Origin: Candidatus Omnitrophota bacterium
GTDB taxonomy: Bacteria; Omnitrophota; Gorgyraeia; Gygaellales; Profunditerraquicolaceae
DNA length: 64,000 nucleotides
Assembly (NCBI GenBank): GCA_041663665.1
Contig: JBAYMG010000006.1
Coordinates: forward strand, 1,918 to 65,917
Direction of reading: 5' to 3'
Shown here: piece by piece, positions 3,568 to 59,250 of the stretch
How positions within the stretch are numbered: position 1 is the first letter of the stretch
Layout: each line of letters begins with the position of its first letter
Position numbers and translations under genes: made by a program
Notes under the pieces: generated by a model
The model's database searches: none
Told to the model about the DNA's origin: nothing
What the model saw: the letters and a program-made list of their open reading frames with translations, nothing else

Positions 3568-4695
3568 CTAATTCAATCCTTTCCGAAAACGCAAAGAACT
3601 TAAAGTAATAACGACTAACCCAATAAACAAAAGCGGCACCAACTGAGGCCAAAGTACTTCTATACCCACCCCTTTTAAAAAAACACTCCTGATAATTACC
3701 ATAAAATAACGCATAGGATTGAACACTGTAAACAACTGGACAACCTGAGGCATATTGGATATCGGGTAAGCAAAACCGGAAAGTAAAACTGCCGGCAAAT
3801 AAAAAAGAAATACCGACATATTTGCCTCCTGCTGAGTAGAGGATATCGTCGAAATAAACAAACCTATCCCCAGAGTAGTAAATAAATATATGCAGGTAGC
3901 AAATAACAGAAATAAAACATTTCCCCGCAAGGGTATATGAAACCAAAGCACACCCAGTATTGTAACCAGAACAACCTGAATCAACGCAATTATCCCAAAA
4001 GGCAAAAGCTTGCCAACGATTAGCTCAATCGGCCTTAAAGGGCTGACGGTTAATTGCTCCATCGTACCAATCTCTTTCTCTTTGACAATAGCCATAGCCG
4101 TTAACAAAAGAGACATCATAGTTACGATTGTGGCAATTACCCCAGGCAGGTAATAATTCCTGGAAATGAAATTTCCATTAAACCATGCGCGGTCGCGAAG
4201 CTCTACTCTAGGCACACTATTTGAAAATCCGGCTTTATCCGCCCGGTACTTAAGCAAGTTCTCCTGGTAAGTGCCAACCACTGCATTAGCATATCCCATA
4301 ATAATCATCGCGCTGTTTGAATCTGTTCCATCAAAAGCCAATGCAATACTAGCTTCCTTACCGGCATTAATGTTGCGGCCAAATCCACGGTCAATGCGGA
4401 TAACCGTGTTAACCGTACCTTTATCTAAAACATAATCCTGTTCCCGCTCACTAGAAATATATTTTTCCGGAACAAAATATTTAGAATAAGTAAACCTGCG
4501 CAAAAGGTCCCTGCTTTCAGCAGTGTTATCCTGGTCATAGATGGCAGTCGGGACATAAGTTATATCTTTATTGGCCGCATAACCAAATAAAATTATCTGA
4601 AGCAGCGGAGAGATAAAAATTATCACCTTCATCTGCCGATCACGGAAGATTTGCTTAAATTCCTTGATTAAAATTGCCTTTGCCCGTTCAAACAT
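3568..4695 (-). CDS. ABC-2 type exporter permease (YbhS/YbhR/YhhJ family)
   Basis: Family-typical N-terminus MFERAKAILIKEFKQIFRDRQ, a large periplasmic loop and 6 C-terminal TMs. The likely start is ATG at 4695, not the longest ORF. Confidence 0.8.
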   Translation of the reverse strand: MFERAKAILIKEFKQIFRDRQMKVIIFISPLLQIILFGYAANKDITYVPTAIYDQDNTAESRDLLRRFTYSKYFVPEKYISSEREQDYVLDKGTVNTVIRIDRGFGRNINAGKEASIALAFDGTDSNSAMIIMGYANAVVGTYQENLLKYRADKAGFSNSVPRVELRDRAWFNGNFISRNYYLPGVIATIVTMMSLLLTAMAIVKEKEIGTMEQLTVSPLRPIELIVGKLLPFGIIALIQVVLVTILGVLWFHIPLRGNVLFLLFATCIYLFTTLGIGLFISTISSTQQEANMSVFLFYLPAVLLSGFAYPISNMPQVVQLFTVFNPMRYFMVIIRSVFLKGVGIEVLWPQLVPLLFIGLVVITLSSLRFRKGLN

Positions 4696-4697
4696 GA

Positions 4698-4786
4698 GCA
4701 CCTCAAAGATTTTATTTAGCGAAACACTTACGAGCGCAAGCAAGTAAGTATGTGCACCTCAAAGATTTTATTTAGCGAAACACTTA
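4698..4786. repeat. 33-bp direct repeat (two copies 56 bp apart) duplicating the RBS/leader of the downstream ABC-2 permease
   Basis: gcacctcaaagattttatttagcgaaacactta at 4698-4730 and 4754-4786. Copy 1 ends 2 nt before the permease ATG and supplies its GAGGTG Shine-Dalgarno. Confidence 0.8.
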
Positions 4787-9873: not shown

Positions 9874-9937
9874 AAATCGGGGACGCTCCTATTTATTTTT
9901 TCTGTTTCATAAGAATAAATAGGAGCGTCCCCGATTT
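9874..9937. repeat. 64-bp perfect palindromic repeat element, copy A
   Basis: aaatcggggacgctcctatttatt-N16-aataaataggagcgtccccgattt. Lies 6 nt after the DEAD-box helicase stop codon. Confidence 0.9.
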
Positions 9938-9943
9938 AATAAC

Positions 9944-11248
9944 TTAGCGGTAAAATTTTGGTTTAGGGTATCTATAGGGCTTTTTTGCTTGAGGCTGAGA
10001 CTGCCTGGACATTTTATTATTAGAATAATGCCCACTTTGACGGCCTCCCTGATGCCCTCCCTGGCGGACAGAATGATGTCCTGACTCACCAAATTTATCC
10101 AGAGTAAGATCTGCATGCTTGGATACAGGCAAAGTAGCTTTAATCAATTTTTCTATGTCCCGGACATCACTACCTTGATCGGGGGTAGCAAAAGAAATAG
10201 CATGCCCCTTATGCCCTGCACGGGCAGTGCGGCCGATACGATGTACGTAATTTTCCGCGTCCTCGGGCAAATCATAATTAAGCACCAGCTCAATGCCGGT
10301 AACATCAATACCGCGGGAAGCAATATCCGTTGCCACCAAAACCCGATATCTCCCGGATTTAAAACCTTCTAACGCATCTCTGCGCTGGGATAGAGAACGA
10401 TTAGAATGTATCTCTGAAGCAGAATAACCCATATCTCTAATTGAATGGACAATTTTTTTAGCATTATGCTTGGTGCGCGAAAACAATAAAACTGTTCCAT
10501 GGTATTGACCAAGAAGTTTCTTTAATAGCTGAGTTTTTGCCTCTTTTTTCACAATAAATAACTCTTGGGTAACAAGTTCGGCAGTAGTGCCCGAAGGAGC
10601 AATCTCAACACTTAAAGGCAATTTCATATATTTGTTAGCTATGCTCATAATTTCTTTTGGCATAGTTGCCGAAAATAGCATAGTTTGCCTTTCGCGGGGA
10701 AGAAAACGCAGTATTTTTTCAATTTGCGGGGCAAAACCCATATCCAACATACGATCTGCCTCATCCAATACCAACATCACTACGCTATCCGGCATAAAAT
10801 TCCACTGTGACATATGATCAATTAATCTGCCTGGGGTAGCAATAACTATATGCGGATCTCTGCGTAAAGCCTGCACCTGGGGAGGCATAGGCGCTCCACC
10901 AATAAGACAAGCGGTTCTCATGTTAAAAGCGCGGGCAATCTCATGAAAAGCTTCATCGATTTGAATTGCTAATTCCCTGGTCGGGGCAAGTACTAACCCA
11001 ATACCCTTTTTTTGAACTAAGCGTTGAACCATCGGAATAGCAAAAGAATGAGTTTTACCGGTTCCGGTTTGAGCAATACCCATAATATCTTTCCCCTCAA
11101 GAGCAAGAGGAATTGCCTTTAACTGGATAGGTGTAGGCACTTTAAACTTCATCCGCTCCAGAATATCTAAAATCTTCGGAGCAATACCTAAACCATAGAA
11201 GTTAGCCTGAACTTCCGGGACACTACTTGTAATCGTTTTATTTGTCAT
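9944..11248 (-). CDS. DEAD-box ATP-dependent RNA helicase with basic Gly/Arg/His-rich C-terminal tail
   Basis: Q-motif region, GTGKT Walker A, DEAD box, SAT and HRIGRTAR motifs. The tail reads GGHQGGRQSGH. Confidence 0.9.
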   Translation of the reverse strand: MTNKTITSSVPEVQANFYGLGIAPKILDILERMKFKVPTPIQLKAIPLALEGKDIMGIAQTGTGKTHSFAIPMVQRLVQKKGIGLVLAPTRELAIQIDEAFHEIARAFNMRTACLIGGAPMPPQVQALRRDPHIVIATPGRLIDHMSQWNFMPDSVVMLVLDEADRMLDMGFAPQIEKILRFLPRERQTMLFSATMPKEIMSIANKYMKLPLSVEIAPSGTTAELVTQELFIVKKEAKTQLLKKLLGQYHGTVLLFSRTKHNAKKIVHSIRDMGYSASEIHSNRSLSQRRDALEGFKSGRYRVLVATDIASRGIDVTGIELVLNYDLPEDAENYVHRIGRTARAGHKGHAISFATPDQGSDVRDIEKLIKATLPVSKHADLTLDKFGESGHHSVRQGGHQGGRQSGHYSNNKMSRQSQPQAKKPYRYPKPKFYR

Positions 11249-11510: not shown

Positions 11511-12629
11511 TTAAACCGGAGCAAATATCCGCTTTGAAAAGTCAGTAAGGAACTTAGATTTAAGCAGGCCTTCATCCCATTCTCCACTGGCAGTTGAATC
11601 CCAGACTATCCCGCCACCTATACCCATCTGGCCGCAAGAACCTTCAATTAAAAGCGTACGAATTGGGATATTAAAAAACATATTTTTATCCGGGCTAATA
11701 TAACCAATAGCCCCAGTATAAATTTTACGCTCCTCTTTCTCAAGTTCGCTAATTATCTTCATCGCACGAATCTTTGGCGCACCGGTAACTGAGCCGGAAG
11801 GAAAAATTGAAGAAAAAAGCTGATAAATTGATATATCTCTATCTACTCTTGCGGTAATTGTAGAAGTCATCTGGCAAAGAGTTTTATATCGAGCCACCTC
11901 AAAAAGCGTTGGCGCTTTAATGCTTGAGCCCAGCTTTCCTAAATCATTTCTTAAGAGATCAGCAATCATCACATTTTCTGAGCGATTTTTTAAATCATAT
12001 TTAAGTCGTAACGGCGCAATCAAATCAGCAAACGCACTCTTACCGCGCGGCCAAGTACCTTTCATCGGTTTGGTTACTAAGTGTGTAAGATTTTTCTTAA
12101 TAAATAACTCCGGAGAAAAGGAAAGAATATGAAATTTATCCGTTTGAATATAAGCAGGATACGGTACAGGCTGCTCTTTTAAAAGCTGATTATAAAAGGA
12201 TAGCGGATCGCCCCTGAATTCAAAAAGCAATTTGATACAATAGGTAATTTGATATACATCACCTAGAGCAATATAATTACGAATTGCCCCTATGTTCAAA
12301 GAGTACTGGTTTTTTGTAATATTTAATTTAAGATTTTCCGGATAGTTACAGTTTAACGGCTTGGGAAAATTTATTTTATCTTTTTGCGGTGTTTTGTACG
12401 CACCTAAATAAATCAGCGGGAAACCATACTCTTTATTTTTATACAGCTTCTCTTCAAAACAATACCCGGCTTCATAAGATAAAAAACCTGCCAGATAGTA
12501 TCCCTGCTTAAGCGCTTTTTCAATACTTTCAAAACTTTGCTTAAATAAAGATGGATCACTGCAAGTTATAATAAAATCCGGGTTTTGGAATAAAAGGGGC
12601 TTTCTTTCAAATTGCAGTAATACTTTCAT
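11511..12629 (-). CDS. chorismate-binding enzyme, aminodeoxychorismate/anthranilate synthase component I-like (short form)
   Basis: PSGSVTGAPKIRAMKII, YTGAIGY and GIGGGIVWDS motifs of the PabB/TrpE C-terminal domain. Confidence 0.7.
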   Translation of the reverse strand: MKVLLQFERKPLLFQNPDFIITCSDPSLFKQSFESIEKALKQGYYLAGFLSYEAGYCFEEKLYKNKEYGFPLIYLGAYKTPQKDKINFPKPLNCNYPENLKLNITKNQYSLNIGAIRNYIALGDVYQITYCIKLLFEFRGDPLSFYNQLLKEQPVPYPAYIQTDKFHILSFSPELFIKKNLTHLVTKPMKGTWPRGKSAFADLIAPLRLKYDLKNRSENVMIADLLRNDLGKLGSSIKAPTLFEVARYKTLCQMTSTITARVDRDISIYQLFSSIFPSGSVTGAPKIRAMKIISELEKEERKIYTGAIGYISPDKNMFFNIPIRTLLIEGSCGQMGIGGGIVWDSTASGEWDEGLLKSKFLTDFSKRIFAPV

Positions 12630-12648
12630 AATCTTTATTCATAGCGTT

Positions 12649-12712
12649 AAATCGGGGACGCTCCTATTTATTTTCTTGTTCCATAAGAATAAATAGGAGC
12701 GTCCCCGATTTA
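12649..12712. repeat. 64-bp perfect palindromic repeat element, copy B
   Basis: Same arms as copy A with a near-identical loop. Abuts the macB stop codon (TAA-ATCGGGG...). Fills the 80-bp gap to the next gene start. Confidence 0.9.
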
Positions 12713-14683
12713 TTCGTAACGCAAAGCTTCAATAGGATCCAATGCCGCTGCTTTCTTCGCCGGCCATAACCCAAAAACTACCCCTACGGCTAAAGAAAAG
12801 GAGGTTGAGAGAACTACGGAAAATAAAGAAACTTTTACAGTCCATCCGGCAAAAATAGTAATGAGAACTGCTACAGCCCATCCCAAAAGCACACCAAAAA
12901 TCCCCCCCAGGAAGGACATCAACATTGCTTCAATAAGAAACTGCACCATAATATCTTTGTTAGTTGCCCCGATTGCCTTGCGCAAGCCGATTTCACGCGT
13001 ACGCTCGGTAACTGAAACAAGCATAATATTCATAATACCAATACCGCCAACTAAAAGCGATATGCCGGCAATTACCCCCAGCAACAATGACATAGTACTA
13101 GTCGTAGTTTCCAATGTTTTCTTAATATCCGCCATATTACGAATTTGAAATGAATCCTCGGCATCTTTAGAATCAAGCCTATGTTGCTTAATAATCAGCT
13201 TGGATAAATCTTCCTGTGCCACATCAATGGCATTAGGATTTTTTGCTTCCACATAAATAGTATCTACATATTCCTTCCCAAAAACCCGATACATCGCTGT
13301 AGTAATCGGAATAACCGCCACATCATCCTGATCATGAAAAGTACTTGCTCCTTTGGCCGGCAAAATACCGATTACTTTAAAATTAAGAAGATTTATTTTT
13401 ATTGTCTGGCCAATCGGATTTGCTTCGCCAAACAATTCTTTAACTACGGTTGTGCCTAATAACACAACCTTGTCCCTCATTTTAATTTCACTTTCCGTAA
13501 AAAATCTTCCTAACGCCGGATAAGCTGCGCGGATCGAAGGATAATCAATCCCTACCCCTTCAACTTGAGTATTCCAGTTATTACTACCATAAACCATCTG
13601 GCCTCTTCCGGTTACTGAAGGACTAGCGCTCTTGACCACGTCAGTAAGCTTGGCAATGGCGGTAACATCCCCGAGAGTAAAACGCGTCACCGTACCTGAT
13701 TCCATCGCTACACCGTGCATTTTCGAAGAACCCGGCCGAATAACTAAAAGATTAGATCCTAAGGAAGCTAATTGTTTCTCGATAGAATCTTGAGCACCCT
13801 GCCCCAAAGCTAACATAGCAATGACTGCTGCAACTCCAATTAATATGCCCAGAATAGATAAAATCGAACGCATTTTATGAGCAAACATTGCAAACACTGC
13901 CTGACGCAAATAATCAACAAATTTAGTTTCCCCGGAAACTTTATGCGGTTTGGATAAAATATTATTTACCAAATTATCTTCGAGAACAGTTGCTTCCGAT
14001 GTCTTTGGCTCTGCTTGTTTACGCTGGTCAGAAATAATTACTCCGTCACGCATATGAATAATCCTCCGGCAAAAATCAGCAATCTCCTGCTCATGCGTAA
14101 CGATAATCACAGTCTTACCTTTTTGGTTAAGCTTTTGCAAAATTGTAATTATCTCTGTTTTACTTTTTGAATCTAAATTGCCCGTCGGTTCATCCCCGAA
14201 TATTATAAAAGGCTCATTGACTAAAGAACGGGCAATCGCTACTCTCTGCTGCTGGCCTCCGGACATTTCATTAGGCCGATGGAACATCCTGTCCTTTAAG
14301 CCGACATTCTCAATCTCCTGTTTTGCTTTTTCTTTTAAATGCCTCTTACCGGCATAAATCAAAGGAAGTTCGGCATTTTCCAAAGCAGTCATCCGCGGTA
14401 ATAAATGAAATTGTTGAAAAACAAAACCGATTATTCTATTTCTTAATGTCGCTAATTCTTCATCGGAAAGGTTGGTAATATCCCTTCCACCCAAATAATA
14501 AGAACCTGCATCCGGGCGGTCAAGTAGGCCCAAAATGTGCATCAACGTAGATTTGCCGGAACCGCTGGCGCCCATAATGGCAACAAATTCCCCACTTGAT
14601 ATTTTTAAGGATACATCAGATAGAGCCTTAACCTCGACTTTACCCATCTGGTAGGTTTTAAATATATTTTTTATCTCAATCAT
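12710..14683 (-). CDS. macB: MacB-type ABC transporter (N-terminal ATPase fused to FtsX-like permease)
   Basis: GASGSGKST Walker A, LSGGQQQR, a large periplasmic domain and 4 C-terminal TMs. Confidence 0.9.
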   Translation of the reverse strand: MIEIKNIFKTYQMGKVEVKALSDVSLKISSGEFVAIMGASGSGKSTLMHILGLLDRPDAGSYYLGGRDITNLSDEELATLRNRIIGFVFQQFHLLPRMTALENAELPLIYAGKRHLKEKAKQEIENVGLKDRMFHRPNEMSGGQQQRVAIARSLVNEPFIIFGDEPTGNLDSKSKTEIITILQKLNQKGKTVIIVTHEQEIADFCRRIIHMRDGVIISDQRKQAEPKTSEATVLEDNLVNNILSKPHKVSGETKFVDYLRQAVFAMFAHKMRSILSILGILIGVAAVIAMLALGQGAQDSIEKQLASLGSNLLVIRPGSSKMHGVAMESGTVTRFTLGDVTAIAKLTDVVKSASPSVTGRGQMVYGSNNWNTQVEGVGIDYPSIRAAYPALGRFFTESEIKMRDKVVLLGTTVVKELFGEANPIGQTIKINLLNFKVIGILPAKGASTFHDQDDVAVIPITTAMYRVFGKEYVDTIYVEAKNPNAIDVAQEDLSKLIIKQHRLDSKDAEDSFQIRNMADIKKTLETTTSTMSLLLGVIAGISLLVGGIGIMNIMLVSVTERTREIGLRKAIGATNKDIMVQFLIEAMLMSFLGGIFGVLLGWAVAVLITIFAGWTVKVSLFSVVLSTSFSLAVGVVFGLWPAKKAAALDPIEALRYE

Positions 14684-16974: not shown

Positions 16975-19149
16975 TCACTTATTCGAAATTAAAACTTTAT
17001 ACAAATCTTCATTCGAGCGACAAGATAACATCTTTTGCCGATTTTCATCACTCATTAAAAAATTAGCTACTTCAGCCATGTGTTTTAAATATGGATAAGC
17101 AAAAGCTCTAGGAACTAAAGTAATCACAAATATCAAAGATGGTTTTTTGTCCAACGAATTAAAATCAACCCCTGCTTTTTTTATCCCGATTGCAGATACT
17201 AAATGGCTGACTTCATCGGTTTTAACATGCGGAAGCGCAATACCATCCTGCATCCCGGTTGAAATAATCAACTCCCTTTCAAGCAGATCCTTTAAAATTT
17301 TATCCTTGTTTTGATTGACACCCAGCTGGCCTGACCTGGCTAAAACATCAACTAATTCCCGCATAATTTCTTCCTTAGTATTACCTTTAAGATTTATTTC
17401 CACTGCTGCTTTGTTAATAATCTGGGAAAATTTTACGCGCCCATTCTTAACCTTGCCTTTATTTTCAAATATACTCCTGCCGATCTTCTCTTTATCCGGA
17501 AGAACTTCCAGATGTTTAATAATATATTCCAGATCAACTAGAACATCATAAAAAAGGGTCTGAATAAACGAACTATCACCGGCTGAACAGGAAAAGATCA
17601 AAGATTGCGGGGTATATTTCAAAACAATAAATGTTTGATCTTTTCGAATCTGGTAGATCTTCTCCGGGACCTCTGTAAGGTATATATAAAAATTTTCCCG
17701 TTTAAACGCCTCAATTACCCTAATTAAGATTAACTCCGAAGTCTCTAAATTAGGCATAGAATACTGAATTTCAGTTTGTTCAAGTCTAATTTTTAACTTT
17801 TTTCTTAAACCCGTCCCATCTAAGGCGAATAGTTTAGCTAAAAAAGGCGGCGTAACCAGGGTGGTAATTAATGTCATCATTACCGAAATACTAAAAATAT
17901 CACGCGGGATTATATTTGCAGAAAGCCCGATGCCGGCGATAATTAAAGCTACCTCTCCCCTGGGAATCATGCCCACGCCAATTCTTGTTGCGCCGATTAA
18001 GTTAAAATTACAAAATAAAGCCGGAAGCCCGCATCCGAATACTTTTCCCACTATGGCAAAAACCAGATACATTGAACTAAAAAGAAGAACCTTGGAGGAA
18101 AATATCTCTTGTAGATTAACCAACATGCCCATCACGCAAAAGAAAACCGGAATAAAAAATTTCTGCAGCACAGACAAATTTTCCTGAATTATATAAGAAA
18201 GATCAGTTTTGGAAAGAGAAAGCCCCATAACATAGGCACCAATAATCATAGCTAAACCTGATCTTTCAAATATACCTGCCAAAAATAAAGCTAAAGCCAA
18301 ACTAATAATAGAAATCGCGGCTTTATCTTTAAACTTTTTTAACAAACCACTTAACTGGCGGGCAAAAGTTATTCCGACAACTGTAAACCCCAACCAGATA
18401 ATAATCGCCTTTAGAGAAATAAAACAAACTTGTTTCCAGGCAACCTGCCCGCTCTTGCAGATACCAATAATAATCGCCAGGACGATAATCCCAATTACAT
18501 CATCAATAACCGCAGCTGAAATAATCGTAATGCCTTCCGGTGAATCCAGCTTCCGGCTGTCTGACAAAGTCCTGGCAGTAACTCCAACCGAAGTAGCTGT
18601 TGAAATAATTCCCAAAAACAACGGTACAGGATGGCCAAAACCATATTGCAGGCCAAAAACATACTTAGAAAATAAAACCCCGGCTAAATCTCCAAGGACA
18701 AAACTTAAAATTGCCCCAAAAAGAGCAATAAAAGAACCAGCTAAAGAAAACCTGAATAAAGTATCTATATCTGTTTCCAACCCAACAATAAAAAGCAAAA
18801 TAATCGAAGCAATTGTCGAAATACCATAGAGCTCGATCGAAACCGGAAATCCGGCATAAAGGGGAAAAAATCCCTGCGCTAAACCAGGAAGCTTGATCCC
18901 GCCTAGAAAATAAGGGCTGATAATGATCCCGGCAACTATTTCTCCAACAACTGTAGGTAATTTAAGTTTATTAAACAATACCCCGCCGGCTTTGGCAGCA
19001 AATATAATTATGCCCAATTGTAAAACTAAAACCGCCATACTATCAACAATATCTGCATGCGCCGGCACCTCTTGAGCATACAAGCTGGAAAATGACGCAA
19101 AGAAGAAGAATGCAAAAATTGTAAGTATAAAAATATTTTTTATTTTCAT
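16975..19149 (-). CDS. CPA2-family cation/proton antiporter fused to a C-terminal PTS EIIA type-2 (PtsN-like) domain
   Basis: Roughly 400-aa Na/H-exchanger-type membrane domain, then a linker, then the EIIA-2 signature GIALPHVKT with the phosphorylatable His. N-terminal signal-like sequence. Confidence 0.75.
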   Translation of the reverse strand: MKIKNIFILTIFAFFFFASFSSLYAQEVPAHADIVDSMAVLVLQLGIIIFAAKAGGVLFNKLKLPTVVGEIVAGIIISPYFLGGIKLPGLAQGFFPLYAGFPVSIELYGISTIASIILLFIVGLETDIDTLFRFSLAGSFIALFGAILSFVLGDLAGVLFSKYVFGLQYGFGHPVPLFLGIISTATSVGVTARTLSDSRKLDSPEGITIISAAVIDDVIGIIVLAIIIGICKSGQVAWKQVCFISLKAIIIWLGFTVVGITFARQLSGLLKKFKDKAAISIISLALALFLAGIFERSGLAMIIGAYVMGLSLSKTDLSYIIQENLSVLQKFFIPVFFCVMGMLVNLQEIFSSKVLLFSSMYLVFAIVGKVFGCGLPALFCNFNLIGATRIGVGMIPRGEVALIIAGIGLSANIIPRDIFSISVMMTLITTLVTPPFLAKLFALDGTGLRKKLKIRLEQTEIQYSMPNLETSELILIRVIEAFKRENFYIYLTEVPEKIYQIRKDQTFIVLKYTPQSLIFSCSAGDSSFIQTLFYDVLVDLEYIIKHLEVLPDKEKIGRSIFENKGKVKNGRVKFSQIINKAAVEINLKGNTKEEIMRELVDVLARSGQLGVNQNKDKILKDLLERELIISTGMQDGIALPHVKTDEVSHLVSAIGIKKAGVDFNSLDKKPSLIFVITLVPRAFAYPYLKHMAEVANFLMSDENRQKMLSCRSNEDLYKVLISNK

Positions 19150-19183
19150 AATTTAATAACTAATCATTGGCCTACTTTAAAAT

Positions 19184-21739
19184 TTACTCGGAAACAAATT
19201 TCTTATTTAATGCTTTAAAACCTTCAAACCAAACTAAACTTATTATACCACTGACAAACGCAATAAGTAAATCCCCTACTGATAAAACTGAAAAATGGAA
19301 AAGATTGCGTAACGCCGGAACATAGATAACCAACATAAGTGCAGCTAAAGCCCCACACATAACCGCTAATAATGCTTTATTTTTTGACCTTAGAATTCCC
19401 ACTAGATTCTTAGACCAGGAAAGATTAGTAATGATTAGCATGACATTAGCAAAAACCAATGTTGCAAAAGCCAGAGTGCGCGCTTCAAGTTCACCTTTCT
19501 TTAAAAATAGCGCGAACATAAACACGGCAAATACAACTGCCAGCACACTAAGCCCCTGTAATAAACTAAAAATAAACGACTTTTTATTAAATAGTGACTC
19601 CCGTAAATTACGCGGAGGCCTTTTCATAATATTATTTTCTTCCACAGAAGCCTCAAATACTGTTGAGCAGGCCGGATCAATGATCAATTCCAGAAAAGCT
19701 ATATGCGCCGGTAAAAGCGCTATCGGTAAATTAAATAAAACCGGCAAGAATGACATCCCGGCAATCGGTACATGTATCGAAAAAATATACGCAATTGCTT
19801 TCTTTAAATTATCAAAGATTCTCCTGCCTAAACGCACCGCATGTACAATTGAAGAAAAATCATCATTAAGCAACACCAGAGCAGAGGCCTCGCGCGCCAC
19901 GTCAGTACCCCTCTCACCCATCGCAATGCCGATATGCGCCGACTTTAAAGCCGGAGCATCGTTAACTCCGTCTCCGGTCATTGCCACAACCTCTCCGTTA
20001 GCTTTTAAAGCATTGACGATCGCCAATTTTTGCTCCGGGACAACTCGCGCAAACACGTTAACTGTTTTTATTCTTTCTCTAAGCTGCAAATGATTCATTG
20101 TTTCAAGTTCAGGCCCGGTTATACACTGTCCAGGATTCTTAAGTCCAATTTGTTTTGCAATATAAATGGCTGTACCCGAATAATCTCCAGTTATCATAAT
20201 CACCCGCATACCCGCATCGTGGGCCTCCTTTATCGCCGCCGGAACAGTTGAGCGTATCGGATCAATAAACCCAAGTAAACCGATAAATTCAAAAATAAAA
20301 TCATGCTGGATATCCGGTAGATCAGCCTTCTTAAAAGAAGCTCTGGCAACACCTAAAATACGCAGGCCTCGATTAGCCATCTCTTCTATGTTTTTAGCAA
20401 GCTCCCTGTGTTGAGCTTGACTAAAATGGCAAAGTTCTCCTATGGCCTCAGGAGAACCTTTAGTAGCAATTATAAAATGCTGCTTATCAGGAGACTCCCA
20501 AACATGCGATAAAGCGAGCAGTTGTTTTGAAAGCGGATATTCTTTAATCAGCTTCCAGTTTTTGTGGATATGCTCGGAACCGGATAAATAAAATTCCCCA
20601 ATACGTTTTAATTCTTTCTCAATCGGATCAAAAGGGTCTTTCTGACTAGCCAAGATACCATACTCCATAAGATCATGCACTGTTTCAGGTAAAGATTTTA
20701 ACTCTTTTGTATCAACATCATAATAAGTTCCCTTAACGCATAAGGTAGTCAGATGCATCGCATTTAAAGTAAGTGTCCCGGTCTTATCTGTACATAAGAC
20801 TGTCGCAGCACCCAAGGTTTCAATAGCGGCAGAACGCCTGGTTAAAACCTGGCTCTTAGAAATTCGCCAAGCACCTAAAGTAAGAAAAATAATTAAAACT
20901 ACCGGAAACTCTTCCGGCAGCATTGCCATGCTTAAGGTTAATCCGGAAAGTATACCGTTTAGCCAATTCCCGCGTGTTGCCCCATAAATGACGATAACCA
21001 ACACGCAGAGAATTATTCCGGCGATGGAAAAATTACGTACAATCTTGCCTGTTTCTTTTTGCAGCAGAGTATCTTCTTCACGGATATTTTGCAAAGCCCG
21101 GCCGATTTTTCCCATTTCGGTATGCACACCGATAAAGGTTACCCGGGCAACACCCCGGCCCCCGACTACCAATGTACCGGAATAAACAAAGGGAAGGTCA
21201 TCTCCCCCCGGATGCCGATTAAACTCTTCCTTATCCCATTCTGATTTACGCACTGGCACAGATTCGCCAGTTAGCAAGGATTCATCTACAGACAAATTTG
21301 AACAAGACAAAATCACCGCATCTGCCGGAACCCGGTCGCCTTCTTTTAAAATAATTAGATCTTCAACAACGACCTCTCTACCGGCAATCCTCTTCTGTTG
21401 GGCTTGGCGGATAACCAGCGCCCTGGGGCTTGAAAGATCGCGTAATGCCTCTAAAGTTCTTTCTGTTTTTCGCTCCTGGTAAAAGGTAATTCCGACTACC
21501 ACAAATACAAAGGTAAGTAACATCAATGCATCCCTGGGCTCACCTAAAATCAAATAAATGGAACCGGTAAATATTAATAAAAGCAGCATCGGCTCTTTTA
21601 TAACATTAAAAAATATTATAAAAACATTACGCTTTTTTTGAGAAGGGATTTCATTATAGCCATACTGCTTAAGTTTCTCGACAACCTCTTTTTCTGATAA
21701 TCCTTCCAGCTCTTCAATTTCCCGTTCACAAAACCCCAT
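19184..21739 (-). CDS. P-type cation-transporting ATPase (P2-type, Ca/Mg-ATPase-like)
   Basis: CTDKTGTLT phosphorylation motif, TGDGVNDAPALK hinge, PEEFP in TM4, 10 predicted TMs. Start chosen at MGFCEREIEEL. Confidence 0.85.
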   Translation of the reverse strand: MGFCEREIEELEGLSEKEVVEKLKQYGYNEIPSQKKRNVFIIFFNVIKEPMLLLLIFTGSIYLILGEPRDALMLLTFVFVVVGITFYQERKTERTLEALRDLSSPRALVIRQAQQKRIAGREVVVEDLIILKEGDRVPADAVILSCSNLSVDESLLTGESVPVRKSEWDKEEFNRHPGGDDLPFVYSGTLVVGGRGVARVTFIGVHTEMGKIGRALQNIREEDTLLQKETGKIVRNFSIAGIILCVLVIVIYGATRGNWLNGILSGLTLSMAMLPEEFPVVLIIFLTLGAWRISKSQVLTRRSAAIETLGAATVLCTDKTGTLTLNAMHLTTLCVKGTYYDVDTKELKSLPETVHDLMEYGILASQKDPFDPIEKELKRIGEFYLSGSEHIHKNWKLIKEYPLSKQLLALSHVWESPDKQHFIIATKGSPEAIGELCHFSQAQHRELAKNIEEMANRGLRILGVARASFKKADLPDIQHDFIFEFIGLLGFIDPIRSTVPAAIKEAHDAGMRVIMITGDYSGTAIYIAKQIGLKNPGQCITGPELETMNHLQLRERIKTVNVFARVVPEQKLAIVNALKANGEVVAMTGDGVNDAPALKSAHIGIAMGERGTDVAREASALVLLNDDFSSIVHAVRLGRRIFDNLKKAIAYIFSIHVPIAGMSFLPVLFNLPIALLPAHIAFLELIIDPACSTVFEASVEENNIMKRPPRNLRESLFNKKSFIFSLLQGLSVLAVVFAVFMFALFLKKGELEARTLAFATLVFANVMLIITNLSWSKNLVGILRSKNKALLAVMCGALAALMLVIYVPALRNLFHFSVLSVGDLLIAFVSGIISLVWFEGFKALNKKFVSE

Positions 21740-26968: not shown

Positions 26969-27025
26969 AAATCGGGGACGTTTCTATTTATTTAGACATA
27001 TTAGATAATAAATAGAAGCGCCCCC
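26969..27025. repeat. palindromic repeat element, degenerate copy C
   Basis: aaatcggggacgtttctatttattt ... aataaatagaagcgccccc. The arm mismatches break the perfect palindrome. Confidence 0.7.
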
Positions 27026-27045
27026 ATGGGAAAACATCCTCTTTA

Positions 27046-27213
27046 TTAACTACGGCCCTCGTTCTTACGCTTTGAATAACAATCCCTGCAATATATCGGA
27101 CGATCTTCTCTGGGCTTAAAGGGGACTTCACATTCTTTTTTGCATTCTGAACATGTAGCTTTGTGCATCTCTTTTGGCCCTGAACCAAATCCACCACCTG
27201 ATTGATACCCCAT
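27046..27213 (-). CDS. small (55 aa) zf-trcl-like zinc-ribbon protein, paralogue of the 21920..22438 core
   Basis: Hand translation gives MGYQSGGGFGSGPKEMHKATCSECKKECEVPFKPREDRPIYCRDCYSKRKNEGRS. Below the 60-aa ORF-track cutoff. Confidence 0.55.
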   Translation of the reverse strand: MGYQSGGGFGSGPKEMHKATCSECKKECEVPFKPREDRPIYCRDCYSKRKNEGRS

Positions 27214-29502: not shown

Positions 29503-29527
29503 TATTTCTCCAATTCATTTCAAAATT

Positions 29528-29590
29528 AGGGGACGTTTCTATTTATTTTATCGTTTTATACATCTAAATAAATAGGAGCGTCCCCGATTT
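29528..29590. repeat. palindromic repeat element, copy D (left arm variant gtttc)
   Basis: aggggacgtttctatttatttt-N15-aaataaataggagcgtccccgattt. Ends 6 nt before the stop of the 83-aa gene. Confidence 0.8.
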
Positions 29591-29596
29591 AATTGA

Positions 29597-29848
29597 TTAT
29601 TGATAATTAAAAAGATCTTTAAGTAAATAACTTTTACCCGCAGCTTTATTCAAAGCATTCAGGATTTTAATTTGCACATGCGCAGTCAGCCTTTTGCCTT
29701 TTACGGCACGAGCAACCATTTTGTGCGTAATTTGTTCGGCTGAATTTCTTACCAGATCATTTGGTTTCAACTCATGTTCAGCAATAATTTTTGCAATCGG
29801 CTGTTGCCCGAAATTTCTTTCAAGTTTTTGAAATTTATTTTCTATCAT
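29597..29848 (-). CDS. hypothetical small protein (83 aa)
   Basis: ORF with start codon. Basic/helical, no recognised domain. Confidence 0.4.
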   Translation of the reverse strand: MIENKFQKLERNFGQQPIAKIIAEHELKPNDLVRNSAEQITHKMVARAVKGKRLTAHVQIKILNALNKAAGKSYLLKDLFNYQ

Positions 29849-30225: not shown

Positions 30226-30555
30226 TTACGCCTTGGCTAATAGCCCGCGAAACATGAAAAAGGCTGCAGCCAAAATACATAGTGCTGCCCAGAGATAATC
30301 TTTCTTTAAACCCTCTTTCATATAAAATACGCAAAACGGCACGAACACTGATAAAGTTATTAGCTCTTGCAGAATCTTAAGCTGCCCAAGATTCATTACC
30401 TGATGGCCAATTCGATTTGCCGGAACTTGCAGAAGATATTCAAATAAAGCTACTCCCCAGCTGATTATAGCCGCGAAAATCCAGGGTTTTTGGCTATAAT
30501 TTTTTAAGTGGCCATACCAAGCAAAAGTCATAAACACATTACTGCATATCAACAT
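30226..30555 (-). CDS. DUF486/DMT-superfamily small membrane protein
   Basis: SNVFMTFAWYGHLK N-terminal family signature; 4 TMs. Confidence 0.7.
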   Translation of the reverse strand: MLICSNVFMTFAWYGHLKNYSQKPWIFAAIISWGVALFEYLLQVPANRIGHQVMNLGQLKILQELITLSVFVPFCVFYMKEGLKKDYLWAALCILAAAFFMFRGLLAKA

Positions 30556-30805
30556 TAAAACCGTAATAGGATACTTATTAATTTTTAACCTCTTTTCTAA
30601 AAAATCCTCCGGTTCTTTACCGTTAACCTTTTAAAACTTAATAATTAAGTACCCTTTTAGCTTAAGGAAACTAAACCTCTTACTAATTTATGCCCCCGGG
30701 CCTTTCTATTTATTAAGGTGTATTATACGGCTCAAAACAACTGTTATCAAGACAATTCGAGTTTGCACCGGATGTTTGATATTGCTGAGGGGTAATTATG
30801 TTTAT

Positions 30806-58398: not shown

Positions 58399-58510
58399 AA
58401 AAAGCGCCCCTTAATCCATCCTTGGAATTAAAAGACGCTATCGTCTTAAATAACTGCTTAAAAATAAAATGGCGTTCCTTATCTTGGAACGCCGATGTCT
58501 TTTACGCTTC
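58399..58510. repeat. about 110-bp duplicated double-hairpin module, copy 1 (3' of the HTH gene)
   Basis: X hairpin GCGCCCCTTAATCCATCCTTGGAATTAAAAGACGC, a spacer, then Y hairpin GGCGTTCC-TTATCTT-GGAACGCC flanked by an A-run and a T-run. Confidence 0.8.
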
Positions 58511-59143: not shown

Positions 59144-59250
59144 AAAAAAGGTGCCGCATATCCATCTCTTGGATAAAGGACACCTTTGTCTTAACAACTA
59201 TTTAAAAATAAAGGCGTTCCTTATCTTGGAACGCCGATGTCTTTTTGCGC
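59144..59250. repeat. duplicated double-hairpin module, copy 2 (3' of nadE)
   Basis: aaggtgccgcatatccatctcttggataaaggacacctttgtctt ... aaaaataaaggcgttccttatcttggaacgccgatgtcttttt. The Y hairpin is identical to copy 1. Confidence 0.8.

Follow-up and report, generated by a model that had tools for sequence, protein, structure and literature searches.

Stop-codon-associated hairpins in an Omnitrophota genome are probably terminal-repeat dimers of a REP-associated tyrosine transposase

The hairpins that lie dispersed behind stop codons in the stretch of DNA analysed here (64,000 nt of an Omnitrophota genome, hereafter the window) are very probably non-autonomous mobile elements, in each of which the terminal inverted repeat (TIR) of a RAYT-type Y1/HUH transposase gene is present twice, in opposite orientations; as such they would be TIR dimers equivalent to REPINs. 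The kind of element (REP/RAYT-like) is already known. What is new is the host phyla and the copy density, for a transposase subclass reported to be repeat-poor, together with a 19-nt TIR core shared across phyla, a tight coupling to stop codons, and sites at which copies seem to decay into plain terminators.

Results

Four hairpins behind stop codons in the window

The window holds four copies, A to D, and one doubtful remnant:

Copy A, 9874..9937, unstranded: complete hairpin with an 18-nt loop between arms that pair perfectly over 24 nt (27 nt at 96%); 6 nt past the stop of a DEAD-helicase ORF (9944..11248, minus strand) and 95 nt ahead of the start of an OEP gene (9778)
Copy B, 12649..12712, unstranded: complete hairpin whose arms are perfect over 25 nt; it ends with the 3-nt TAA stop of a MacB-like ORF (12710..14683) and lies 19 nt ahead of the start of a chorismate-binding gene (12629)
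Copy C, 26969..27030, unstranded: degenerate hairpin with left arm AAATCGGGGACGTTTCTATTTATT and right arm, as reverse complement, CCCATGGGGGCGCTTCTATTTATT (matrix scores 35.7 + 25.9 bits); 15-20 nt past the stop of a 55-aa zf_Tbcl_2 ORF (27046..27213) and 22 nt ahead of the start of a radical-SAM gene (26946)
Copy D, 29524..29590, unstranded: hairpin with a degenerate left-arm variant, AATTAGGGGACGTTTCTATTTATT, and a perfect right arm; 6 nt past the stop of an 83-aa ORF (29597..29848) and 21 nt ahead of the start of an ABC-F gene (29502)
Possible decayed single arm, 30693..30716, plus strand: cccccgggccTTTCTATTTATT, matching in the inner 12 nt alone and without a partner arm

A preliminary description of this DNA had proposed a repeat family of at least four hairpins, and the family is real: the 19-nt arm core has 8 matches in the window at up to 3 mismatches, against 0.06 expected, and the inner palindrome CTATTTATT-N6-36-AATAAATAG has 4, against 0.01. 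In A and B, AAATCGGGGACGCTCCTATTTATT faces its reverse complement, and the arms are perfect over 24-25 nt. The description had ascribed 24-bp arms to every copy, which holds for A and B but not for C, with two core changes in its left arm and a right arm that is more degenerate still, or for the left arm of D; its coordinates for A and B stand, and those of C and D are refined to the ones listed above. The loop that it took to be conserved is common to A and B only. The loop of C resembles that of the copy next to the transposase gene described below, and the loop of D is different again.

All four copies are intergenic according to the ORF calls. Each lies 0-20 nt past a minus-strand stop codon, as had been described, and the next start codon follows 19-95 nt further on; copy B does fill most of its gap, occupying 61 of the 80 nt between the MacB-like ORF and the start at 12629. 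For A, B, C and D the predicted RNA folds reach -43.3, -45.5, -28.1 and -23.8 kcal/mol, at z-scores between -9.8 and -4.3 (-9.6 for copy A), and no shuffled sequence was equally stable. Outside the main stem, copy B has an additional helix, GCGTTA/TAACGC, and copy A one of 5 bp, TTAAG/CTTAG. The 3´ tails of the window copies are weak, consisting of CCCCGAUUU (GAUUU in the RNA) and then mixed bases, and a terminator scanner called none of the four. A GTAG tag is absent from both ends of A-D; CGTC occurs (GAGCGTCCCC) but is base-paired within the stem.

Very stable hairpins at a fixed position relative to stop codons could also be structured regulatory RNAs or protein-binding sites that serve their neighbours, such as 3´ UTR sRNAs, attC-like sites or operators. 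We find this scarcely credible, given that the genes beside the copies are functionally unrelated (helicase/OEP, MacB/chorismate-binding, zinc finger/radical SAM, and 83-aa ORF/ABC-F), that a reading of the boundaries revealed no integron-type core sites, and that Rfam returned no match at the gathering threshold; its E-value mode gave sub-threshold look-alikes of miRNA precursors, which are generic long hairpins. Two specific candidates were also rejected: CRISPR arrays by the irregular spacing of the copies, and integron attC sites by the lack of GTTRRRY-type boundaries in the sequence and by neighbours that are housekeeping genes.

The segment 30690-30716, formerly taken for a half copy, did not hold up. 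It does not fold (z +1.8) and scores below 2 bits on the family matrix, which rules it out as a confident family member; at most it is a remnant, possible by virtue of the exact 12-mer TTTCTATTTATT within it, which occurs 3 times against 0.09 expected.

Several other features of the window were noted in passing. Uniformly negative GC skew from position 1 to 64000 (-0.12 to -0.25) and minus-strand coding of nearly every gene place the whole window on one replichore. A search for tRNA and tmRNA genes in the window found none. The flanks of copy B (12630-12648 and 12700-12725) contain a 10/12 direct similarity, GTTACGAATAAA / GCTATGAATAAA, that resembles a target-site duplication but may be a local coincidence, as the test over 86 copies described below gave no such signal. 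A 42-nt direct repeat, 93% identical, is present at 58462-58503 and 59204-59245, 742 nt apart, and holds another hairpin, GGCGTTCC-TTATCTT-GGAACGCC, followed by a T-rich tail; this is a second, unrelated family of terminator-like hairpins. At the junction of the two ABC-2 permease genes, a 37-nt sequence occurs twice (4694-4730 and 4750-4786, 97% identical, 56 nt apart) and may be a duplicated gene start.

A transposase gene with identical arms on the same contig

The preliminary description had placed the hairpins in a REP-like or MITE-like class and proposed looking for a cognate REP-associated tyrosine transposase (RAYT). The class is supported, and the gene was found on the window's own contig, bracketed by identical arms. 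We scanned metagenomes with the window-specific arm and obtained a contig (L122) with exact window-type arms around a RAYT; a protein search from L122 led to the 100% identical protein P0121, whose gene a look-up placed on the contig of the window. P0121, a 223-aa Y1/HUH transposase, is encoded at 18862-19533 of the 97,207-bp record ena:ERZ27247350:k141_1550317. Window position 1 corresponds to record position 30368, and the P0121 unit extends from about -11505 to -10834 in window coordinates, separated from the left edge of the window by 10.8 kb, with the gene on the strand opposite to that of its neighbours. A tblastn search found no RAYT within the window itself; the gene lies outside it, to the left.

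The unit begins with a single arm, AAATCGGGGACGCTCCTATTTATT, followed after 51 nt by the ATG, and the TAA stop overlaps a full hairpin made of the same arms. In the part of the contig inspected as L124 these arms are:

9927-9950, plus strand: exact 24-nt arm ahead of the gene
10671-10694, plus strand: exact 24-nt arm, first half of the hairpin 10671-10732 that overlaps the stop
10709-10732, minus strand: exact 24-nt arm, second half of that hairpin

The arms of A and B are 24/24 identical to these repeats, so A and B look recent; C and D, judged by their divergence, look older. Over the roughly 85 kb of the contig that was inspected (L124, L111 and the window) there are five complete hairpins, a lone arm and a 24-mer that resembles an arm. 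The last of these, AATTTCGGGACGTTTCTATTTATT (24.6 bits), lies about 9.6 kb left of the window in the final codons of cbiQ (...FGTFLFIAK*; L124 11898-11921, also L111 20339-20362), and the cbiQ C-terminus may derive from the arm of an old element.

The transposase belongs to Pfam Y1_Tnp (72 bits), with no other Pfam domain, and scores 78.5 bits with the NCBIfam model REP_Tyr_transpos (REP-associated tyrosine transposase), just below its 80-bit cut-off. A PDB search with a single RAYT sequence gave no match; a 13-member family profile alone reached 4ER8, E. coli TnpAREP, as its best match (E 1.6e-4), ahead of ISDra2 TnpA. In the family alignment N59, H60, H62, W99, Q100, Y120, E122, N124 and P125 are invariant. 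The proteins are 221-225 aa long and carry the motifs NHTH, NHVH or NHIH, then WQ (WQGRFKS) and YIELNP, and they share a conserved C-terminal tail of about 90 aa that ends in KRGRPxK and in which Pfam detects no HTH/DnaA-like domain. By its motifs (NHxH, WQGRFKS, YIELNP) the enzyme is assigned to TnpAREP subclass 2.1, which is RAYT group 1 or "TIRYT".

Arm layout around transposase genes in other genomes

A single arm at each end of a Y1/HUH gene of about 221 aa recurs at several other loci from independent genomes, the left arm preceding the ATG by about 54-111 nt and the right arm either containing the stop codon or following it closely:

Both arms present: L008, L009, L014, L024, L068, L076, L097, L126 (two genes), L127 (both ends)
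Right arm alone visible: L081, L100, L117
Stop codon inside the right arm: L008, L009, L014, L024, L068, L076, L117, L126 (two genes), L127

Among the loci with the left arm about 54 nt ahead of the ATG, most have a TTGACA-N17-GATAAT-like promoter directly after that arm. The junction of the stop codon with the right arm reads ...AAT AAA TAG|AAGCGTCCCC, and the AT-rich distal stem (AATAAATAG) supplies the final codons and the stop of the transposase gene; part of the arm conservation thus follows from the coding of the transposase C-terminus and stop by the distal stem. At every locus inspected at which the arms are widely spaced, the Y1/HUH transposase is the only gene between them.

Further loci follow this layout with arm variants of their own, and two further arrangements were seen. 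In L126 (10001-12373) two RAYT paralogues lie 1 kb apart, with TIR variants GGGGACGGTTC and GGGGTCAGAA and each with its stop inside its own right TIR; the pair brackets an RHH/Fic gene pair. In two unrelated genomes the left arm is present in three tandem copies upstream of the RAYT gene (L014 3507-3570 and L127 9840-9960).

The hairpin family across genomes

A scan of 596 Gb, one genome per species, with the query GGGGRCGYTYCTATTTATT returned at least 109 loci. By our own estimate about 35 singletons are expected by chance in 596 Gb, and isolated single matches (in Bacillus, Akkermansia, Oscillibacter and others), being about as many as that, were not counted as family members. Many MAGs of Omnitrophota and Aminicenantes contain related copies with the core GGGGACGYTTCTATTTATT, often several palindromic ones in one MAG; among the matches listed, dozens are from Ca. 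Omnitrophota PPR_0461 and several are on megabase Aminicenantes contigs. Assignment to these two groups rests on many copies or long contigs, while further copies come from MAGs labelled Planctomycetales, Auribacterota and Thermodesulfobacteriota, where errors in MAG labels or small contigs are possible. The 19-nt core recurs across phyla together with RAYT genes. In many PPR_0461 loops (L044, L060, L069, L078, L086, L089, L105) there is a second, nested palindrome, CAACCTACGCGGTTGCCA...TGGCAACCGCGTAGGTTG, which appears to be one repeat family inserted inside another.

We compiled 86 full hairpins from the fetched loci and the window. Their outer 8 nt differ between genomes yet are complementary within a copy (at least 6 of 8 positions in 53/86), and at least five of the 9 nt after CCCC are T in 66/86, with matching A-rich leaders. 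The weak U-tract noted in the preliminary description is seen in the window copies; most of the wider family has terminator-like tails. Gene context could be classified for 59 copies: the neighbouring genes are co-directional in 35, convergent in 18, where the copy occupies the whole gap, and divergent in only 6, at least one of these last being an artefact of the 90-aa ORF cut-off. The family is thus not confined to the window, and its copies are placed non-randomly at gene 3´ ends. The distance from the stop codon to the GGGG core is typically 1-13 nt, with clusters at 1, 5 and 6 nt, so that the stop falls inside the A-rich outer arm, which is conserved as (T)AAAATAAA or TAAATC. This link to stop codons may arise by insertion targeted to a TAA-like sequence, or by insertion near gene ends followed by use of the element's own TAA/TAG.

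A test over all 86 hairpins gave no signal of a target-site duplication (3.07 observed, 3.16 under the null), which fits an HUH enzyme and argues against MITEs of the classical type, that is, internally deleted insertion sequences of a DDE transposase that are mobilised through their terminal inverted repeats. Inverted 24-nt arms around a short non-coding core, in several dispersed copies, do look like such elements. We nevertheless regard them as very improbable, since no DDE transposase stands beside any arm at the loci inspected and the sole gene found between distant arms encodes a Y1/HUH transposase.

Sites A and B in relatives

Orthologues of the MacB-like protein with 84-87% identity, taken with their flanks, provided four relatives (L113, L114, L115 and L116) in which gene order near the element sites is largely conserved. 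Site B is empty in L114 and L115, where the junction reads CGAATAA-TAAAAT(T)-ATGAA and the gap is 6-7 nt, compared with 80 nt in the window; these empty sites show that copy B was inserted into a junction of the operon type. At the same site L113 has 73 nt with a different variant hairpin (GGGGACGGTTCTCTTTTTT), and in L116 (11975-12101) the gap measures 127 nt and contains a palindrome, about 100 nt long, that is unrelated (GTGTCATTGCGAG...CTCGCAATGACAC). The MacB junction thus seems to be a hotspot, a repeated landing place for different hairpin elements.

Site A has a different history. L115 carries GGGGACGTTTC-ATGCTAAA-GAAACGTCCCC and then a T run, L114 a short hairpin much like it, in which the core has diverged slightly (GGGGGCATTTC/GAATGTCCCC), both with the look of a plain terminator; L113 has a degraded copy of the full arm, and L116 has no hairpin. 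With a hairpin in three of the four relatives, the occupancy of site A would be old, and the series of forms points to decay toward a minimal terminator-like stem. With such long vertical persistence, selection for termination, rather than mobility, may maintain many copies.

The terminator-like remains at site A, the T-rich tails with their A-rich leaders, and the copies that span whole convergent-gene gaps all favour the reading that the hairpins are ordinary Rho-independent bidirectional terminators, whose shared sequence reflects selection for a good stem and whose association with a transposase is incidental. We think this unlikely. The 24/24 identity runs through the AT-rich 8-bp distal stem and the outer flank, which is more than termination needs; the RAYT gene has this 24-mer on either side; where copy B sits, two relatives have an operon junction of a few nucleotides; the tails in the window are weak; and the 19-nt core accompanies RAYT genes in different phyla. 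Termination would account for a secondary role of the elements better than for their origin. The same family-wide tails and terminator-like relatives at site A, along with a loop that only A and B share, weaken the opposite view, put forward in the preliminary description, that the hairpins act in mRNA stability or insulation rather than in termination.

Discussion

The reading that we prefer, that the hairpins are mobile TIR dimers, can be framed as follows. The P0121 unit, with its single arm, its gene and its stop-overlapping hairpin, would be the master unit of the window copies. The transposase would act on single-stranded DNA, probably at replication forks, by recognising the arm or hairpin, and its HUH motif and catalytic tyrosine would cut and rejoin the strand, so that short hairpins could spread in trans without target duplication; mobilisation of the TIR dimers in trans through single-stranded DNA is proposed by analogy with IS200/IS605 and TnpAREP (PMC3479197, PMC8266576, PMC3116915). 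Copies would persist where they are harmless or useful, in the short 3´ spacers right after stop codons, and the TAA carried by the A-rich outer arm would end a reading frame that enters a copy at or beside that copy. Once transcribed, the 24-bp stem would probably form a 3´-end hairpin that causes partial or bidirectional termination or protects against exonucleases. Such terminator or mRNA-stabilising activity is plausible and would be secondary to mobility; the weak tails in the window and the terminator-like tails in the wider family suggest that the host-level role may differ by lineage. REPs within about 15 nt of a stop can reportedly lower translation of the upstream gene (Liang, Rudd & Deutscher 2015). 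Several points speak against the TIR-dimer reading: the single arm, unlike classical REPs, is not self-complementary, the unpaired GTAG tag is absent, hairpins have long persisted at site A in relatives, and no REPs were reported near subclass 2.1 genes (PMC6006769). We know of no member of subclass 2.1 with demonstrated transposition, cleavage or binding.

A more far-reaching possibility, which we hold to be rather unlikely though worth stating, is that the RAYT-TIR unit is an old, largely vertical system that seeds bidirectional terminators, each with its own stop, at gene ends in at least two phyla, many seemingly ordinary GGGGACG-stem terminators of these genomes being decayed copies. If this were true, a group 1/subclass 2.1 RAYT, held to be repeat-poor, would be a domesticated distributor of terminators whose insertion is targeted to TAA-containing sites.

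These observations provide a clean pairing, at the sequence level, of dispersed hairpins with a transposase in Omnitrophota, a phylum without cultured models, and they concern RAYT subclass 2.1/group 1, in which dispersed repeats had been reported absent or scarce. The cross-phylum core, the abutment to stop codons and the decayed copies make this a natural system in which to ask whether such elements are selfish, domesticated or both. There is also a practical side to annotation, as the hairpins mark gene 3´ ends and can mislead assemblers and gene callers; the risk stems from arm-derived codons at the 3´ ends of CbiQ and RAYT.

Among known systems, bidirectional terminators and the REPs that stabilise mRNA in E. 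coli resemble the hairpins in having a stable G+C-based stem with A-rich and T-rich tracts right after stop codons. The conservation seen here goes far beyond the needs of termination, and the U-tracts of the window copies are weak. IS200/IS605 elements (ISHp608, ISDra2) share the Y1_Tnp fold family, the lack of target duplication and a presumed dependence on single-stranded DNA hairpins. Their ends, in contrast, are subterminal hairpins in direct orientation, where ours are terminal inverted repeats, and their Y motif is Y...Q where ours is YIELNP; no tnpB is present here.

Another comparison is with the REP/REPIN-RAYT systems of Pseudomonas and E. coli (Nunvar 2010; Bertels & Rainey 2011, PMC3116915; TnpAREP structure 4ER8, PMC3479197). 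As in those systems, short extragenic palindromes follow genes at their 3´ ends, two inverted repeats together form the hairpin that replicates as a unit, the repeats flank a cognate HUH/Y1 transposase, and the copies of the repeat far outnumber the transposase. The family described here differs in having no unpaired GTAG tag, a single arm that is not palindromic, a spacer of 10-20 nt (in the window), and a transposase of subclass 2.1 rather than 2.2 or 2.5.

The closest likeness is to RAYT-like genes with long TIRs in place of GTAG REPs, named "TIRtrons" and encoding "TIRYTs" (Di Nocera, De Gregorio & Rocco 2013, PMC3733652). Their TIRs share the motif GGGGWSAS, some overlap the gene 3´ end, and moderately abundant TIR families are often dimers. 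Most TIRYTs fall in TnpAREP subclass 2.1, which is Bertels' group 1, with the signature NHVH or NH[YF]H, W[EQ], and YIELNP or Y[IV]HLNP, and a length of about 238 aa (Table 1 in Quentin et al. 2018, PMC6006769). The genes described here are likewise RAYT-like Y1 genes with long, non-self-complementary TIRs, the 3´ TIR overlapping the gene end, and with dispersed TIR dimers; they encode NH[TVI]H, WQ and YIELNP in proteins of about 220-240 aa. To the motif GGGG[AT][CG]A[CG] the window arms (GGGGACGC) match at 7/8 positions, with G instead of A at position 7, and exact matches occur in the L126 paralogue GGGGTCAG and the L116 hairpin GGGGACAG. Differences are the hosts, Omnitrophota and also Aminicenantes, which are absent from those surveys, and a C-terminal region in which Pfam finds no HTH/DnaA-like domain. 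For subclass 2.1, moreover, no REPs were reported near the genes (PMC6006769), and counts of flanking 16-mers were low for group 1 (Bertels et al. 2017, PMC5581495), whereas hairpins are common here, at about 1 per 17 kb, and show a strong link to stop codons. On these sequence comparisons we file the family as a putative TIRYT/TIR-dimer system that works like REPIN-RAYT, and not as a GTAG REP.
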